Shown here: positions 1,221 through 13,340 of the stretch, piece by piece
How the letters are laid out: every line of letters starts with the position of its first letter
How positions within the stretch are numbered: the stretch's first letter is position 1
DNA from: Dictyostelium discoideum
Taxonomy: Eukaryota
Direction of reading: 5' to 3'
Assembly (NCBI GenBank): GCA_000004695.1
Contig: CM000151.3
Location: 4,096,001 to 4,160,000, forward strand
DNA: 64,000 nucleotides
Notes under the pieces: model-generated
Database searches by the model: none
What the model was told of the DNA's origin: nothing
What the model saw: only the letters and a program-made list of their open reading frames with translations
Made by a program: the position numbers and the translations under genes

Positions 1221-1611
1221 CACACAATAAAAAAAATATTAATTTTTATTGATGATGGTTTTTAATGATGATCATAAAAAAAAATTTTTTAAAAAAAAAA
1301 ATAAAAAATTAAAAAAAAAAATTAAAATTTTTTTTTTTTTTTTTTTTTTTCAAATAATCACCAAAAATGAATTAAAATTTTTTTTTATTTTTTATTTTTT
1401 TTAAATTTTTATTTTTTTATTTTCAATCTCAAAAGCAAAAGCAAAAGCAAACACGTACACACGACTTTTTCATATTTTTTATTTTTTTTTATTTTTTATT
1501 TATTTATTACTTGTATTTTTATTTGTATTTTATATTAAATTATTTTATTATTATTATTATTATTTTTTTTATTTAATGGAAAAGTAAAGTGATTTCAAAA
1601 AAAAAAAAAAC

Positions 1612-1811
1612 ATGAAAAAATTGTTTGATATTATTTCTCCGAGTAAAAATATACAACAACAATCTGCAAGTGGTAAAGAATCGTCATCATCATCATCATC
1701 ATCTTCATCACCATCACCATCAAAAAATAGATCTTGTTTTAATGGAATTGGTTAGTTTTTATGAAAAAATAAAAATAATAAAAAAAATTAATAAAAAAAA
1801 AAATTATTAAC

Positions 1812-1903
<92 letters not shown>

Positions 1904-2171
1904 TAAAAATAAAAACAAAAATAAATTTTATAGGTATAAATAGTAAAATTAATAATATTAATATCCAAGAAGATTCTATTAGCAATGGAAATAATAATGA
2001 GAAATACCCACAAATTGAAAGAGATAATATTATTAAAATAGTTTTATTAGGTGGATATCAAGTTGGTAAATCATCAATAATAAGGAGATATCTTCAAGGT
2101 TGTTTCACAACATCTTACATACCAACTATTGGTATAGATTTGTCAACTTTATTATTAAAAAGAAAGCAATC

Positions 2172-2238
<67 letters not shown>

Positions 2239-2631
2239 CCATCACCACAATCATCACAGCAACCACCACCACAACAACAACAACAGCAACAGCAACAACA
2301 ACAACAACAACAACAACAAACACCTCAACGTAATAAAAATGAAAATTATGATGAGAATGATTATTTAAGTGATTATTCAGATTCAGAATCAAAAGATGAT
2401 TCATCATTAAATCAATATTTAACGCAATCACCAAATCAATATATAGTACAATTTTGGGATGTTGCCTATGCAGAGATTAAAGGTAAACATTTCTCTAGTA
2501 TTTTAAGTGGTGCTTCTGCAATCATTATGGTTTATGATTCTGTTAATGCAAGTTCAATTTTAGCAATTGATGAATGGAAAACAATTTTAAATACTTCACC
2601 ATTTATTCAAATTAATAATGGTAATAATAAC

Positions 2632-2662
<31 letters not shown>

Positions 2663-3867
2663 GTAATAATAATAGTAATAATAATAATAGTAATAATAAT
2701 AGTTTTAATAGTAATAATTATAAAAAAATACCATTGGCATTATTTGCAAATAAAAGTGATATTGGTGAACCAGTTATAAGTCCAACAGATTTAGATTATT
2801 ATTGTAATGCATGTGGTTATAGTATTTGGAGATTTACTTCATGTAAAAAGGATTTAAATATTATATCAGGTATTGATTCATTGATTTCATTAGTTATTGA
2901 AAATAAGAATCAAGAACTCTCTGATATTAGGAATAGATTATTAAATGAAAAAAAAGAAAAAAGAAAATTAATTTATCAATTAAAGAAAAATGTAAATTTA
3001 AATACAAGTGTAAAATATACAAGAAGTATTAATAAAAGTAGTAGTGGTAATAAAAATCAAGATAATAATAATGTTGATGATATTGATATAGTTAAAAATT
3101 TAACAAAAGAATTAGTTTTATCACAATCTTGTCCAAATATTTCAAATTATGGTAAAGATGTTAATAATGATGATGATGATGATAATAATAATACTATTGA
3201 AAATAATGAAAATGAAAATAATGAAAATGTAAAAAAACAACAAGAAAAAGAAAAAGAACAAAAAGAAAAAGAAAAAGAAAAATTACAACAATTTAAACAT
3301 CAAAGTGAAATTGAAAAAGTAAATGAATTATTAGAGATGACAAATGAACATTATTCAAAGTTTCAAAAATCTTTGGAAGAGATTATGTCAAAATCAAATG
3401 GTACAACTAGATATAATGATTTAGTTCAGTTGGAGAAACAAAGAAGTAATGAATACGTAAAAATATGTAATAATTTAAAGAAATTAATTCAACCAAGTGC
3501 ATTTAGACAACATCATCACCATCACCACCACCATCATCATCATAAACCTTCCCAAAAAATAACATCAGATCTACTTTCAAAGATCTTGGATGAAAATATT
3601 TTAAAATGGAATACTTTAATCTCTAATCTTCAATTGGAAATATCTTTAAAATTAAATAATCAAAATAATGTATATCAGTCAAATAATAACAACAATAATA
3701 ATGTAAAACAAAATAATAAAGTAGCACAATCCTATAATGCTGTTAGTCTTTTAATTAAAGATGATCAAGAATATAGATATAATAATAATAATAATAATAA
3801 TAACAATGGTGGTAGAAAAAATAGCTTCAGCAACAGCAGCAATAATATTAATAATAATAATAATAAT

Positions 3868-3955
<88 letters not shown>

Positions 3956-4491
3956 GTAGTATAAATAATAGTATAAAATTAAATATAAATAATAATCCAA
4001 AGTATAAGATGGGTTTTGGATTTAAACATGGTGGAAAGAATTTATCATCAAATTTTTCAATTAATGATCATAGTATTGATACTGATAATCCTTCAATGAC
4101 AAGTTCTTCAATTACTAGTAATTCCTCAATGAATAGTTTTTCATCCTCTCCAAGTAGTTCTCCACCAAATGATGATATCAATGATAATAGACATACAAAT
4201 AATATCAATAGAGTAGCTACAAATGGTGATGGTAATGTTGATGGTGGTGGTGGTGATAATATTGGTGATAATGATTCAAGCTCTTTAAATAGTAGCAGTT
4301 ATCAAAACCATCATAATCATCATAATCATCACCGACACAATTTTAATAATGATAGTAATAATAACAGTTATTCCCCATCAACTAGTCATAATGGAATTGG
4401 AGGTGATGATTTCCTCTTACCATCCCCTTCTCTATTACCCTCCTCTTATAATTTAACTGTAACTGTTTTACCTGATCTTAAATATAAATAA
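1612..4491 (+). CDS. Large Rab/Ras-like small-GTPase-domain protein, ~920 aa. Exons 1612..1750 and 1934..4491. A polyQ insert sits between switch I and II; the C-terminus is a long coiled-coil, polyN/H-rich extension.
   Basis: Exon 1 is MKKLFDIISPSKN...CFNGIG, ending at the donor G|GTTAGT. The intron contains (AAT)32. The acceptor is ttttatag|GT at 1932-33. GTPase motifs: G1 LLGGYQVGKSS; switch I TIGIDL; NKxD as ANKSD; SAK-like TSCK. The DxxG motif is divergent (WDVAYAE). Confidence 0.7.
1803..1900. repeat. (AAT)n microsatellite of ~32 units inside intron 1 of the GTPase gene
   Basis: Perfect aat repeats are visible directly in the sequence. Confidence 0.9.
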
Positions 4492-4587
4492 ATATTTGGA
4501 AAAAAAAAAAAAAAAAAAAGTTTTTTGTTTTTATTGGTGTGTTAAAAATATTTTTAGTTTTAAAATAAATTTGAGAACAAAAAATTG

Positions 4588-4621
<34 letters not shown>

Positions 4622-4889: not shown

Positions 4890-4903
4890 AATGAATGCGT
4901 TCA
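4890..4903. repeat. Target site duplication of the TRE5-A insertion, left copy
   Basis: aatgaatgcgttca is identical to 7311-7324. Confidence 0.8.
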
Positions 4904-5227
4904 TTTTTTTTTTTTGAATTGGATAACGCAATTATTATTTGCTTCTCCTTGAGATGCTAGATCTCATTTTATTTTTTTTTTTTTTTTACAGGGTCTTTTT
5001 GATTAAAACATCTTTTTTGTCCAAACTTTTTTCTAAATCTTTTTTTATTTTATCGTCTGGTTCGTGATTGATGTTTATGACGTATTTGAATTGTTTTTTT
5101 TTTAATTGAGTTTTATCCACAATTTCGCTTATTTTTTGTAGGCATTTGTGTTGCTTAATATTTGTGGTGTTGTTTGTGATTTTCATTTTATTTTCTTTCT
5201 ATCTTTTTTATTTTTCTGATTAACTTG

Positions 5228-5271
<44 letters not shown>

Positions 5272-5567
5272 TTATAGAAAGTACTGAGTGAATTATTGTA
5301 TTTTTTGAGATGTTTAGGAAGTTCTATTGCGGGTGTTGATGATGATTTGTGACACCCCTTGTCCTGTTTTATCAATTGGTGCGTGGTGTGTTATTTTGTT
5401 TTTATATTGTTGATTTATTGAGTAAATTTTATTTGTTTTTATATTTGTTTCAGTTAGAAGTGCTGCGTCCAGCTTGTTGTTGTCTAAAACGGTGTTTATT
5501 ATGCTGGCAGATTGGATGGTGTTGGATCCTTGGACGTTCCAAACACCTATTCTTATTGTGTTTTTCT

Positions 5568-6902
5568 TTATAGTTTTATTTGGGGTAGATTTTTATCTAC
5601 CTTTTGAAGTTTCTGGTTTATTTTGTCTTCTAACTGATCTTTACTTTGTTCATTGTGTTGTTGGTCTTGTGTGTTTGTGGGGTTTTTTGATTTATTGATT
5701 TGTTTTAGAATTTCCTTGTTGAAGTTGTCTATATCTTCATCCATTTTTGTTTTTATGCTTTTTTGTCCATATTCACCCAATTTTGGTTTGACTGGTGTTT
5801 TGTTGGTCTTGTTTGTTTTGCCTTGTTGTTTCTTTTTTGGTGTGTTTAACAATTTACTTGGTGAATCGATAATTTTCGATGGTGTACCATAGGTTGGGCT
5901 GAAACTCATGATATGTTTTATTGGAGAGGAGAAGAACCATTGATTTGAAGGGATTGAAAGTGGGAATTCTATTTTTCTTATTGCATCAGTGTTTGGGCTG
6001 GTGAAGTCGAAGATATCATTTGCCTCTCTAAGTTTTTCTTCCGTTGTTAGTCCCTTTGTTTCGCCGTGTTGTTTTATTGGTGTATTGTATGGAGATGGTG
6101 GTTCGATAGGTTTTTCTGATTTTGTTTTAATTTCTTGATTGTTTATCGATTGTGTATTGATCTCATTCTCTATTCTTGTTAGTTCATCTACGTTTTCTAG
6201 TGATGCTTCTATTACCTTTTGAGCTGTATCATCTAGGGCCATAAATGTTTTATCATTAGATGAGGATGTGATTGGTGGGATAATGATTGTTCTTTTTCCT
6301 TGTTTTGGTATTTGTTCTGATGTAGATTGTGGTTGTTGTTCATCTGATTGTTTTTTATTTTTGTTTTCTTCTTGATTTTCTGGTAATGAGGTTTGATCTC
6401 TCCATCCTTTGTTGGAGTGTCCAATTAATGTTAGATTGTCTAGTTCAATGATAGTGTCAAATTCTTCTACGACTCTTTTCACTGTTTTGATAATTAGAGT
6501 TTCGCCTTTAATTTCTGATTTAATTAGTTTACATCCTTCATTTTCTATTACCCATTCTATTTCTGTGAGTGATTTATACCAATCAAAATCTGTATACATA
6601 TTTTTTGGTCTTATAGTGGTTATAAATTGTCCTTTTAATTCTGCATCAAACATATTTACAAAATAGATTACTGTACTAATACTGTCTGTGAGAATTTTGA
6701 ATGTATTATTACTTTTGATTAAAACATCTTTTTTGTCCAAACTTTTTTCTAAATCTTTTTTTATTTTATCGTCTGGTTCGTGATTGATGTTTATGACGTA
6801 TTTGAATTGTTTTTTTTTTAATTGAGTTTTATCCACAATTTCGCTTATTTTTTGTAGGCATTTGTGTTGCTTAATATTTGTGGTGTTGTTTGTGATTTTC
6901 AT
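5568..6902 (-). CDS. TRE5-A ORF1 protein, 444 aa (~51 kDa)
   Basis: Uninterrupted 444-codon ORF inside the TRE5-A element. Its first 63 codons are duplicated at 4986..5186 as part of the 3' B-module copy. Confidence 0.7.
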   Translation of the reverse strand: MKITNNTTNIKQHKCLQKISEIVDKTQLKKKQFKYVININHEPDDKIKKDLEKSLDKKDVLIKSNNTFKILTDSISTVIYFVNMFDAELKGQFITTIRPKNMYTDFDWYKSLTEIEWVIENEGCKLIKSEIKGETLIIKTVKRVVEEFDTIIELDNLTLIGHSNKGWRDQTSLPENQEENKNKKQSDEQQPQSTSEQIPKQGKRTIIIPPITSSSNDKTFMALDDTAQKVIEASLENVDELTRIENEINTQSINNQEIKTKSEKPIEPPSPYNTPIKQHGETKGLTTEEKLREANDIFDFTSPNTDAIRKIEFPLSIPSNQWFFSSPIKHIMSFSPTYGTPSKIIDSPSKLLNTPKKKQQGKTNKTNKTPVKPKLGEYGQKSIKTKMDEDIDNFNKEILKQINKSKNPTNTQDQQHNEQSKDQLEDKINQKLQKVDKNLPQIKL

Positions 6903-6965
6903 TTTATTTTCTTTCTATCTTTTTTATTTTTCTTTAAAAAGTTAAAAATCTGGAAATTTTCTAAT

Positions 6966-6977
6966 TAACTTGGTTCC

Positions 6978-7028
<51 letters not shown>
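6966..7028. repeat. Poly(T)63 tract (poly(A) on the element strand) between the TRE5-A 5' repeats and the B-module
   Basis: Homopolymer run read directly from the sequence. Confidence 0.9.
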
Positions 7029-7031
<3 letters not shown>

Positions 7032-7310
7032 TCTTTTTTATATGAAAAATGAAATAATCAAAAAAAGAGATTGTTGTTGTTGTTTGTTTTTTTCGATCTG
7101 ATTATTTTTTGCTTTTTTTTTGAAAATTTTGCTACGCAAAATTCTCAAAACGAAACAAATAATAAATTACAATAAAGTAAAAAGATGGCTTTTTAAAATA
7201 GTTTATTTATTTATTTATTTGTTTTTTAAGTCTTTTTTATATGAAAAATGAAATAATCAAAAAAAGAGATTGTTGTTGTTGTTTGTTTTTTTCGATCTGA
7301 TTATTTTTTC

Positions 7311-7324
7311 AATGAATGCGTTCA
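7311..7324. repeat. Target site duplication of the TRE5-A insertion, right copy
   Basis: aatgaatgcgttca is identical to 4890-4903. Confidence 0.8.
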
Positions 7325-7356
7325 ATAAGGATTAAAAAAATAAACTTTCATATAAA

Positions 7357-7439
7357 GCAAGGGTAGGAAAGTCTGGTTAAATCCGTGTGACTTAAGATCT
7401 CATCCATTCGGTTCGCGAGTTCGAATCTCGCCTCTTGCA
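7357..7439 (+). tRNA. tRNA-Leu(UAA), type II with a long variable arm, 83 nt
   Basis: Cloverleaf folded by hand. Acceptor GCAAGGG/CTCTTGC with discriminator A. D-stem GGA/TCC. Anticodon stem TGTGA/TCTCA with one U-U mismatch. Anticodon loop CTTAAGA is identical to human tRNA-Leu-TAA. Variable arm is 12 nt. T-arm GCGAG-TTCGAAT-CTCGC. Confidence 0.8.
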
Positions 7440-7466
7440 AGTTTTGTGGAAACGAACATTAGGTCA

Positions 7467-7478
7467 GGTGTTCGATTC
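7467..7478 (+). promoter_or_regulatory. External B box (ex-B) downstream of tRNA-Leu
   Basis: GGTGTTCGATTC lies 28 bp after the tRNA 3' end and matches the B-box consensus GGTTCGANTCC. Dictyostelium tRNA genes commonly carry such an ex-B box. Confidence 0.55.
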
Positions 7479-7566
7479 TATGCCAATATTCCCAAATATT
7501 GGAGGCTAATATTTAAATTTTGCGATCAATAAAACGTTTTTCAATTGTGTTGATTATATTATGAAA

Positions 7567-7593
7567 ATTATTCCTTGAAAAAGATCCATAGTC
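7567..7593. repeat. Target site duplication of the TRE3 insertion, left copy
   Basis: Identical 27-mer at 10352-10378. Confidence 0.8.
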
Positions 7594-7624
7594 TAAAAAA
7601 AGAGAAGAACAACTTAAACAAGAA

Positions 7625-9085
7625 TTGAACAACTATTGCGAAGAAACCTCACTCAAGTACATCTCCGCGAGAATCAAGAAAAGACACAATGATTTCACCA
7701 TCAACGCAGTAAAAGATGCACAAGGTAGAACAATCAACAAACAGGAATTGATCGAAGAAGAATACGTAAAATATTACTCAAATCTTTATGACTACAAAGA
7801 AGATGACGCACCATCTCATTATGAAATGTTGGAAAATTGGACAGTGACCAGGGACTCAACATGGGACAACCTTGAAAATGAATTCACAACACAAGAGATC
7901 CTAGAAGTAATAAAACAATTGAACCCACACAAATCTCCAGGCCCAGATGGAATTCCAAACTTATTCTACATAACACACAAAGAAAAACTAGCTCCAATAC
8001 TGGCCTCAGCATTCAACGACACTCTAAGAAATCCTCATCTAATTAGCAAAAATTACAAAGAAGGCCTCATTATCACGATACCTAAAAAGGGAGACCCCGA
8101 ACTAATCAAAAACAGAAGACCAATTACACTGGCTAACTGTATATATAAAATCCACTCAAAACTAATAAACAATAGAATAATCCCAATACTAACGAAAGTG
8201 ATCAACCACAATCAAAAAGGTTTCGTACCAGGCAGATTCATTATAGATAATATCATATCAATGAACGAATTAATCAACTATTGTAATGATAAAAGAATTA
8301 ACGGAATAATTACACTATATGATTTCGAAAAAGCTTTTGACTCGATTTCACACGGTTCAATACTCAGATCACTACAACACATCAACATTCCAACCAATAT
8401 AATCAACCTGATAATGAATCTACTCACCAAATCTGAAGCAAGAATTGAAATTAATGGTAGAACTACTATACCCTTTGAGATCAAAAGAGGAGTCAAACAA
8501 GGAGATCCACTATCACCCACCCTGTTCGTCCTTGTAATAGAGGCTTTAGCTAGAAAAATTTTACAAGATGACCGAATTACTGGCCTTCCTCTAAACAACA
8601 GCGACCACAGAGAGAAATTCCAAAGCTTTGCAGACGACTCGGCTTCAATGGTCCCAGACTCTCAACAACTTGAATTAGTACTACAACACTTCAATTCATT
8701 TTGCAAAGCCACTTCCTCAAAACTAAACATCGACAAATCTTCATCAATTCTTATAGGCAACCCAGACAATACCAACCAAAGAATACCAATATCTACAAAT
8801 CCAGAAAGATACTTGGGATACTTCTTCACAGGCAAAGGGATAACAAGAAAAATACCAGAAATATTAAACACAATAAGATCATCCTTAGTACTATGGAAAA
8901 CCACTGACTCAACAATCAAAACCAAAACCAACATCCTCAAAGCATTCGCACTCTCTAAATTAACCTACTATTCATATGTAGAGAACTTTAAGGAAGAGGA
9001 ATTAAACCAAATCAATAAATTAGTCGAATGGTTTTTATCGGCACCAAACACAAAAATGCTAGTGGATTTCAAGTTATTAATTTAA
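7625..9085 (+). pseudogene. TRE3 ORF2 fragment, reverse-transcriptase domain; shifts frame into the next ORF
   Basis: RT motifs are present (…YDFEKAFDSISHG…, QGDPLSPTLF, SFADDS). This ORF overlaps 9028..10209 in a different frame. Confidence 0.65.
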
Positions 9086-10209
9086 TGAGAACCAAAGAAG
9101 CAGATACCACTAAAGTAGGGGGCTGGAACATTTGGAATATAGAATTGAGACAACTGGCGCAGAAACTTTGGATCATAAACCAGTTCATCCTAGCACTAGA
9201 AACCAAACAAACAAACTCATCTCATCACAAAAGCTGGGAATATCAGATCCAAAAAAACAAATTCACATCCAGATACCTAAAAGAAAACTTAGATGAATGG
9301 AACAAAATAAGAATAAAAAAAGCAATCTTCAACAATAATCTCACATCCATAAAAAACGAAAATGGACAACCACTTTCACTGGCAGAATGGTATACCACAA
9401 TTCAAGACCAAAATCCAACCATCCCTAAAACGGAATTCCAATCATCTCTAAACTTAAGAGGCTACAGCTATAATCAACTCTTCAACAACATACTGAAGAT
9501 AAAAGACCCTAAAACAAGAGACACAATGTTTAGATTCCATGCCAGATGCCTTCCAATAAACTACCTTCACAACAAACAATGCCCACTCTGCAAAGAAGAT
9601 ATGAGCAAAGACCCATACGGTCACCTGTTCTTCTCATGCAAGAAAACAAAACAATTCATAAAAATAAATAAACTCAAAAATTTCATCTATATTACCACAG
9701 GCAAAGGTAAAAACTGGCACCATACAAGAATTAGGCAAAATAACAATTTCATTAATAGAATAACTCCAAAATTATCACCGACAGCCAAAAAAGATCAAGA
9801 AGTGAATGCAGATTACGCCAACCACAGATTCCACAAAGAATACTTTGAATGGAACTATAAAGCAATAGACTATGATCTAACCAGATCATTCGCATATAGA
9901 AACCTAATGGCCCTTATCCTCCACAACATTTGGATTTGGATTTGCAATCAAATATACAGTGAAGATCCTTTAACAGATGAATCACTATCATACAGCTCCC
10001 TTCTAAAGAAATGGCACAAATTGGCCACTCTAGAATACATCAAAAAAGCAAAAGATCTGAAAAACTTATCAGCAAAAGACCATAATAACTTCAAAGATCC
10101 TAAGATCCTTCTCACTTCAACGATCAAGCTAAGAAAAACAACAGCTAATTACTATTGTATTCCAGAATCATCTCTCCCAAATATTATATCTTTTGATCAA
10201 TTCATATGA
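9028..10209 (+). pseudogene. TRE3 ORF2 C-terminal fragment with a zinc-knuckle-like domain
   Basis: Homologous to the minus-strand fragments at 10680..11393 and 12028..12669 (KDPKTRDTMFRFHARCLPINYLHNK.C..C….DPYGHLFF.C). Confidence 0.65.
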
Positions 10210-13239: not shown

Positions 13240-13269
13240 TATGATCATTCTATTTTTATAAAAATTTTG

Positions 13270-13340
13270 TGCGTATGCTGGGAATCGAACCCAGTTCGCA
13301 TCCGTGGCAGGGATGCATCATACCACTAGACCACATACGC
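13270..13340 (-). tRNA. tRNA-Gly(GCC), 71 nt
   Basis: The reverse complement GCGTATGTGGTCTAGTGGTATGATGCATCCCTGCCACGGATGCGAACTGGGTTCGATTCCCAGCATACGCA folds as follows. Acceptor GCGTATG/CATACGC. Anticodon stem CATCC/GGATG. Loop CTGCCAC gives anticodon GCC. T-arm CTGGG-TTCGATT-CCCAG. It closely resembles human tRNA-Gly-GCC. A T-run follows on the minus strand. Confidence 0.85.

Follow-up and report, generated by a model that had tools for sequence, protein, structure and literature searches.

The 64,000-nucleotide stretch of Dictyostelium discoideum DNA analyzed here (GenBank assembly GCA_000004695.1, contig CM000151.3, positions 4,096,001 to 4,160,000; hereafter the window) has a G+C content of 22.5% and contains, at positions 1612–4491, a gene for an 898-amino-acid protein with a Rab-like G domain in which the glycine and the glutamine of the DxxGQ motif are replaced. 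Positions are given in window coordinates, and those of this target gene refer to the + strand throughout. Exon 1 (1612..1750) encodes residues 1–46 and base 1 of codon 47, and is followed by the sole intron (1751..1933, phase 1, 183 nt, GTTAGT...TATAG), which consists mostly of a tandem (AAT)n array of approximately 52 copies (1768–1924), and by exon 2 (1934..4491), which encodes residues 47–898 and the stop codon in an uninterrupted open reading frame (ORF). The two exons give an open coding sequence of 2697 nt, and exon 2 alone provides a 2.56-kb open frame in DNA of this low G+C content.

Exon 1 is supported by the conservation of the peptide that it encodes and by a comparable intron in P. 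violaceum. The start and the N-terminal peptide are kept in orthologues (MIKLFESLLSPRK, MFKLIEQLLSPSK, MLKLLNSIENLLSPKK), the exon 1 peptide MKKLFDIISPSKN matches the orthologue N-termini MIKLFESLLSPRKN and MFKLIEQLLSPSKG, and a single phase-1 intron likewise interrupts the P. violaceum orthologue, after approximately residue 44. The divergent upstream neighbor, on the − strand, is the N-terminus of a UDP-glucose:glycoprotein glucosyltransferase (UGGT; 75–1170; Thioredoxin_12, E = 1.3e-22). The UGGT gene of P. violaceum likewise lies approximately 3.3 kb from the target orthologue, though in a different relative orientation (region L001, 11594–14287), and this conserved linkage supports the orthology of the two genes. 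The target gene is intact, with orthologues across Dictyostelia, two of which carry the label 'Ras GTPase domain-containing protein' and others 'hypothetical protein'.

The P-loop (G1) GGYQVGKS (residues 86–93, 2050..2073), the switch I (G2) segment IPTIGIDL (2119..2142) with Thr111 of PTIGIDL at 2125–2127, and the G4 motif NKSD (residues 319–322, 2749..2760) were read directly at the places where a first-pass annotation of the sequence had reported a normal P-loop, the switch I Thr (TIGIDL) and NKxD (ANKSD). Among the relatives described below, the first two follow the family-wide patterns G[GA]xxVGK[ST] and PT[IV]G, and NKSD is invariant in seven aligned family G domains. The G5 motif TSCK (residues 348–351, 2836..2847), which aligns with TSAK of Rab32, and helix α5 fall just past position 2820, the end of the segment that had been annotated. 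The degenerate G3/switch II segment reads WDVAYAEIKG (residues 221–230, 2455..2484) and follows the family pattern W-D-[VI]-[SAP]-[HY]-x-E-[LVI]-x-G. Where Rabs have WDxAGQE, the target has WDVAYAE (residues 221–227, 2455–2475), with Tyr225 in place of the DxxG glycine and Ala226 in place of the catalytic Gln; the reported replacement of DTAGQ by a motif without Gly and Gln was thereby reproduced, and the same loss was found in the orthologues. An extra intron or a hidden exon restoring DxxGQ was ruled out by a scan of positions 1500–4600, in which no + frame contains a D..G[QETHLI] motif and no convincing donor/acceptor pair was found, and by the orthologues, whose frames are continuous. Judged from the motifs, the residues expected to hold phosphate, Mg2+ and guanine are all kept (Lys92/Ser93, Thr111, Asp222, NKSD and TSCK).

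Two low-complexity inserts interrupt the G domain of the D. discoideum protein. The first, rich in polyQ, Pro and acidic residues (residues ~125–213, 2167..2433), sits at the tip of the β2–β3 hairpin in the interswitch region and is predicted with low pLDDT. Switch I and the G3 Asp lie 112 residues apart, versus 25 (interquartile range 24–25) in 139 canonical relatives, so that the insert comprises approximately 85–90 residues; the polyQ/acidic insert after switch I previously put at about 100 residues is therefore present, if somewhat smaller. It is encoded mainly by approximately 49 CAA repeats (2172–2319) that form a near-perfect microsatellite. The second insert, an addition to the earlier description, is a polyN segment of approximately 35 residues (~274–308, 2614..2718) in the loop before β5, also with low pLDDT; tandem repeats are found at 2613–2723, and the distance from G3 to G4 is 97 residues versus a median of 62.

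After removal of the low-complexity inserts, the Pfam Ras profile (PF00071), whose use had been proposed with the first annotation, matched essentially end to end (profile positions 1–157 of 162, E = 1.5e-18), well outside what chance would produce. Pfam Roc scored nearly as well (E = 4e-17), Pfam Arf far more weakly than Ras, and beyond these G-domain matches no Pfam domain, COR included, was found in the 898-residue protein at E ≤ 1. In a sequence search of the PDB, Rab32, Rab38 and Rab29 were the best solved relatives (E ~1e-21; Rab32, E = 7e-22). The AlphaFold model of residues 72–390 has a core with pLDDT >90 and disordered inserts, and its G domain superposes best on Rab32/38/29 with target-normalized TM scores of 0.86–0.88. 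The modeled G domain is accordingly of the Rab32/38/29-type fold, and the Rab-like character proposed earlier stands. A Roco protein (ROC-COR) was rejected as a candidate, as no COR domain is present and kinase and LRR domains were likewise undetected in the Pfam search; Rabs head both the structure and the sequence matches, and in those entries LRRK2 is present solely as a partner of Rab29.

The likeness to Rab32/38/29, which rank first in the single-sequence, family-profile and structure comparisons, extends to WD[IV]A at G3, an extended loop before NKxD and the region G[YF]xxW-x-TSxK. Unlike these Rabs, the target has lost the DxxG glycine and the Gln, has no prenylation cysteine and carries a replaced RabF3 motif; it differs further by an N-terminal amphipathic helix, a C-terminal extension of >500 amino acids and the large low-complexity loop inserts. 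The reference motifs RabF1–F5 of Pereira-Leal and Seabra are IGVDF, KLQIW, RFrsiT, YYRGA and LVYDIT. By eye, the target retains four of five positions of RabF1 (IGIDL), two of five of RabF2 (IVQFW), two of five of RabF4 (ILSGA) and three of six of RabF5 (MVYDSV), and RabF3 is lost (IKGKHF). As it has no prenylation cysteine and has lost RabF3, the protein is by its sequence features Rab-like rather than a Rab, and is placed outside the Rab32 clade.

The loss of the switch II glycine is common to all eight recovered orthologues from Dictyostelia and Clastostelium, in which G3 conforms to D[VI][AS][HY]xE. The segment reads FWDISHSEIKG in P. violaceum, FWDIAYPEIKG in Cavenderia fasciculata, FIDVSYAEIRG in Tieghemostelium lacteum, FCDVAHAEIKG in Synstelium polycarpum, FLDVAHAEING in Acytostelium subglobosum, VLDIAYAEIKG in a EukProt sequence and FIDVAHAEVKG in an assembled transcript of Clastostelium recurvatum. 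Because the orthologues share the same substitution, the loss of glycine and glutamine is real, old and under selection, and the existence of the Clastostelium transcript means that the family is expressed. Of the two features whose conservation the first-pass annotation had proposed to check in other dictyostelids, the DxxG loss is conserved, and the polyQ insert is conserved in neither sequence nor length.

Relatives beyond the orthologues were collected by searching 1.84 billion representative proteins exhaustively with a profile, and the best 150 matches were aligned to the family HMM with hmmalign. These fall clearly into two groups: approximately 40 clusters, Acrasis kona and many environmental eukaryotes among them, lack the switch II glycine; the remainder are almost all Rab32-like proteins of the WDIAGQERFG type with CC or CXC ends. 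In 41 family sequences, the glycine position is occupied by His (23), Tyr (9), other residues (8, of which 7 are Ser, Phe, Leu or Ala) or Gly (1), and most members have Ala, Pro or Ser at the Gln position. An Asp or Glu is kept at G3 in 40 of the 41, GK[ST] and PT[IV]G in nearly all members, the P-loop begins with GG or GA, and G4 is mostly [NH]KxD with few exceptions. Of 42 family members, 6 have a Cys within the last five residues, versus 109 of 149 Rab-type matches, and most members begin with a short peptide with a hydrophobic face (MFNWLASKF, MLRWVGNIF, MATLFKSWL, MSGFFKAISGIF).

The family profile preferred Rab32 among the solved Rabs (E = 2e-29, the best score; Rab3C, 2e-24). In addition, the glycine three residues past the conserved Glu (E[LVI]xG in the glycine-less family) aligns with ERFG of the Rab32-like matches, whereas most other Rabs have ERFR at this site. 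For these two reasons, the family is read as derived from Rab32. In a neighbor-joining (NJ) tree, the glycine-less sequences and the environmental sequence P0078 form one clade (bootstrap 71%, and 53% without the G3 columns), which adjoins Rab32/38/29 and is separate from the Gly-containing Rab32-like sequences. P0078 itself keeps the glycine and has lost the glutamine (DVAGVE, FWDVAGVELRGA), and may represent an intermediate or a revertant state. The named members outside Dictyostelia are those from Clastostelium (Amoebozoa) and Acrasis kona (Heterolobosea, annotated as 'Ras-related protein Rab'); the others derive from metagenomes or transcriptome assemblies. For Acrasis, clear similarity is confined to the G domain (31% identity, E = 2e-26). 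Two environmental members, P0153 and P0187, with G3 reading IWDVSSAEVD, contain an SH2 domain between the G domain and a C-terminal KW-helix (Pfam E = 2.9e-8 in P0153). We know of no description of a glycine-less G domain combined with SH2.

Both ends of the target protein are distinctive. Exon 1 encodes the amphipathic helix MKKLFDIIS (1612–1641; hydrophobic moment 0.5–0.6), followed by SPSK and a Ser-rich linker, and in D. discoideum a linker of approximately 70 residues separates the helix from the G domain. SPSK (residues 9–12, 1636–1647) directly follows the helix and corresponds to the CDK-type consensus [ST]-P-x-K, which is also found in P. violaceum, C. fasciculata, T. lacteum and the environmental sequences P0065 and P0091; it may be a phospho-switch acting on the N-terminal helix. 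The protein ends in ...LPDLKYK, and its final Cys is residue 558. Since there is no C-terminal cysteine, the protein has no prenylation signal.

The tail (residues 373–898, approximately 525 amino acids) consists of a helical bundle and low-complexity sequence with short conserved motifs. The tail of about 550 residues described earlier as coiled-coil and of low complexity was thus correctly seen as regards low complexity, whereas in place of a long coiled coil there is a predicted three-helix bundle (residues ~503–625, 3301..3669; containing RYNDLVQLEKQRSNEYVKICNNLKKLIQP and LDENILKWNTLISNLQLE). AlphaFold gives a pLDDT of approximately 90 within its helices, and a polyHis loop interrupts it. 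The domain can be detected by sequence in the dictyostelids, in Clastostelium and in some of the environmental sequences; a structure search with the bundle returned generic three-helix-bundle matches only. The loop joining bundle helices 2 and 3 carries a run of 11 His (residues 574–584, 3520–3552), and a His run is found at the same loop in P. violaceum and, in T. lacteum, in the β2–β3 insert instead. Further downstream, KMGFGFK (residues 738–744, 4006..4026) is invariant in the aligned dictyostelids and found in the other full-length members; it recurs as [KR]xGF[GLA][FV][RK] near the C-terminus of Clastostelium and of the environmental sequences P0061, P0063, P0066, P0070, P0085 and P0095. 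Many of the glycine-less proteins have both the bundle and a K-x-GFGF-[RK] motif. In SIDTDNP (residues 760–766, 4072..4092), the D-T-D-N-P columns are invariant in the aligned dictyostelids, and P0059 and P0095 have similar sequences of the form Y-x-[IL]-D-x-D-N. The conserved C-terminal segment LPSSYNLTVTVLPDLKYK (4435..4488) contains no cysteine, and LPSSY[NH]L is kept in dictyostelid orthologues and Clastostelium.

G domains without the G3 glycine are known from other lineages. The RGK GTPases (Rad, Gem/Kir, Rem and Rem2) have DXWE instead of DXXG at G3 and depart from the canonical switch (PMC4081519); as members of the Ras superfamily with a glycine-less G3, they are the closest functional analogues of the target. 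They form a Ras-like metazoan branch with a degenerate switch I, whereas the target keeps the switch I Thr. Membership in the RGK group was rejected, as G3 of the target is DVAYAE rather than DXWE and no RGK protein was found among the best 60 PDB matches. The Entamoeba 'pseudoRab' EhRabX10 is likewise glycine-less at G3 (DTQDME; PMC8514894), but is a small protein in which G2, G4 and G5 are divergent too, whereas the target is altered in G3 only. RGK proteins and pseudoRabs thus represent other lineages with other patterns of motif loss. The pseudoGTPases classified by Stiegler and Boggon also combine a G-domain fold with non-canonical catalytic motifs (PMC12490416); with Gly and Gln of DxxGQ replaced and the replacement conserved, the target counts by its sequence among proteins that have lost canonical catalytic residues. 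With regard to its putative membrane anchoring, and in this respect alone, the target resembles Arl8 and Arfrp1, whose N-termini form a short amphipathic helix that is not myristoylated and whose C-termini carry no lipid. The hydrophobic moment of the N-terminal helices of Arl8, Arfrp1 and Arf1 is similar to that of the target. The G domain of the target differs from these proteins in being of the Rab type and not of the Arf type, as the Pfam Arf match is far weaker than that to Ras. A possible relationship to RABL6, whose G3 likewise departs from the canonical form and whose tail is also long, is a further lead.

The DxxG glycine is almost universal among switching GTPases, and its backbone amide contacts the γ-phosphate. 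Of the two residues replaced in the target, the glycine normally couples the γ-phosphate to switch II, and the Gln positions the attacking water. In Ras G60A and Gsα G226A, GTP binding is intact and the activating rearrangement is blocked. We consider it probable, though by no means strongly so, that the target is a non-prenylated, Rab32-derived G protein that works as a nucleotide-loaded, helix-anchored adaptor and not as a timed switch. Guanine nucleotide would still be bound via the retained G1, G2, G4 and G5, whereas the glycine-dependent rearrangement of switch II and the intrinsic, Gln-dependent hydrolysis would both be lost; with both gone, the adaptor would be constitutively nucleotide-loaded. 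Attachment to membranes would be brought about by the short N-terminal amphipathic helix, as in Arl8 and Arfrp1, and not by C-terminal prenyl groups, and partners would be engaged by the C-terminal three-helix bundle together with the GFGF, SIDTDNP and LPSSYNL motifs. The polyQ and polyN segments would be trinucleotide-repeat expansions tolerated in two surface loops, with no conserved role. The GTP-binding, non-hydrolyzing scaffold that the first-pass annotation had in mind agrees with the pattern of conservation.

Several points weigh against the reading as a nucleotide-loaded adaptor. Nucleotide binding, nucleotide state and lack of hydrolysis are deduced from motifs, and the assignment of the helix as a membrane anchor draws on the analogy to Arl8 and Arfrp1. 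Support for the NJ clade is moderate, and homology of the Acrasis tail was undetectable by BLAST. The conserved His/Tyr could have a catalytic or γ-phosphate-contacting role of its own, and GAP-driven cycling may occur with a Gln provided in trans by TBC GAPs.

The last two points lead to the alternative of a still-cycling GTPase, for which a TBC-type GAP would supply Arg and Gln fingers in trans and the His/Tyr would sense the γ-phosphate, so that the protein would alternate between its GDP- and GTP-bound forms as a usual Rab does. The nucleotide-binding motifs and the switch I Thr are kept over a deep family, as γ-phosphate sensing predicts, and His or Tyr at the glycine position in 32 of 41 sequences suggests a selected function. 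The near-universality of the glycine among switching GTPases and the Ras G60A and Gsα G226A variants, in which GTP binding is uncoupled from switch II, argue against cycling. So does the Gln position, which most members fill with Ala, Pro or Ser, and the presence of Leu, Ser, Phe or Ala at the glycine position in some members makes a specific catalytic role of the side chain less likely. Intrinsic hydrolysis requires the G3 Gln, but TBC-type RabGAPs replace this cis-Gln with a catalytic Gln of their own (PMC5902221), so that the loss of the Gln alone is no proof of inactivity. Taken together, we regard a cycling switch as rather unlikely.

It appears improbable that the protein is a nucleotide-free, class-i pseudoGTPase whose G domain is a folded interaction module, as in the pseudoGTPase domains of AAGAB and p190RhoGAP. 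Its G3 is degenerate, the γ-phosphate site might be blocked by the bulky aromatic side chain that takes the place of the glycine, and such proteins do exist (PMC12490416, PMC5593906). Against it stand GK[ST] and the G2 Thr in essentially all family members, alongside the near-complete retention of the G3 Asp/Glu and the [NH]KxD of most; retention of these motifs over such deep divergence would be unexpected without nucleotide binding, and the known examples have lost them (PMC12490416).

A functional role of the polyQ/acidic insert, e.g. as a disordered or prion-like gate of the interswitch effector surface, would be compatible with any of these readings. Every orthologue has some insert at the same hairpin, with unrelated lengths and sequences. 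A long insert is confined to D. discoideum, P. violaceum, C. fasciculata and A. subglobosum; it is polyQ in D. discoideum, acidic and helical in P. violaceum and Ser/Thr-rich in C. fasciculata and A. subglobosum, while that of T. lacteum is polyHis, and S. polycarpum and the members outside Dictyostelia have almost none. In favor of a function, all dictyostelid orthologues with long N-terminal linkers have a hairpin insert (distances of 64–112 residues versus 25), from which it follows that the hairpin is permissive and persistently occupied in dictyostelids. Conservation of neither sequence nor length, as well as the near-perfect CAA microsatellite that encodes it, argue against a function, and homopolymer tracts are reportedly very common in D. 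discoideum proteins. We therefore give little credence to such a role. On the sequence comparison, the β2–β3 hairpin is best described as a permissive insertion site and the polyQ as a microsatellite expansion in D. discoideum with no apparent meaning at the level of the family.

That the whole architecture is an artefact (an error in the gene model, a pseudogene, or an intron left unspliced that spans the polyQ or hides a DxxGQ exon) might be suspected, as the region is extremely AT-rich and repeat-rich and the exact 898-residue product is absent from the protein collection searched, but is barely conceivable in view of the long open frame of exon 2, the frame scan, the G3 shared by orthologues in uninterrupted ORFs with some insert at the same hairpin, the support for the N-terminal exon from the conserved peptide and the P. 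violaceum intron, and a Clastostelium transcript with the same architecture. Seven further ORFs of the window were likewise missing from the protein collection, probably as parts of multi-exon genes.

Beyond the working of the single protein, it is possible, though we advance this tentatively, that the gene is the model-organism representative of an ancient, undescribed lineage of the Ras superfamily that branches from the Rab32 group. The traits of such a lineage may be the switch II without glycine and, as a rule, without glutamine, the N-terminal amphipathic helix, the C-terminal three-helix bundle and the GFGF motif. A literature search found no paper describing this gene or the glycine-less family. 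A survey published in 2026 mentions two novel, uncharacterized pan-eukaryotic proteins of the Ras superfamily 'to be published separately' (PMC13393502), and the family may be one of these two. The gene itself is already contained in the published genome, and the glycine-less family is apparently undescribed.

Apart from the target gene, a tRNA-Leu(UAA) gene was observed at 7357–7439, with retroelement ORFs on either side (4900–9100). Upstream of it lies a multi-copy ORF of 444 amino acids (5571–6902, − strand) that is identical to DDB_G0274721, a member of a cluster of 17 near-identical AX4 proteins, and downstream a reverse-transcriptase ORF (7625–9085, + strand; RVT_1, E = 2.5e-34). The arrangement at 4900–9100 resembles the insertions of tRNA-targeted retrotransposons of the TRE type that are characteristic of D. 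discoideum. A tRNA-Gly(GCC) gene is present at 13269–13340 on the − strand.

With respect to the first description of this locus, the polyQ insertion itself is of little consequence; what is added is that the DxxG loss marks a conserved Rab32-derived family, apparently unnamed, whose N-terminus and tail are distinctive. A conserved family that lacks the DxxG glycine yet keeps its nucleotide-binding motifs amounts to a natural experiment on the purpose of this glycine. If the family is indeed an ancient lineage, the conserved His/Tyr would represent a new mode of reading or locking the γ-phosphate. Such a family may also represent membrane adaptors of the Rab type that are permanently 'on' or do not switch. 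Rab32, Rab38 and Rab29 control lysosome-related organelles and phagosome defense and recruit LRRK2, and D. discoideum is genetically tractable. A non-cycling cousin of Rab32/38/29 in this phagocytic amoeba would thus be of some cell-biological interest.

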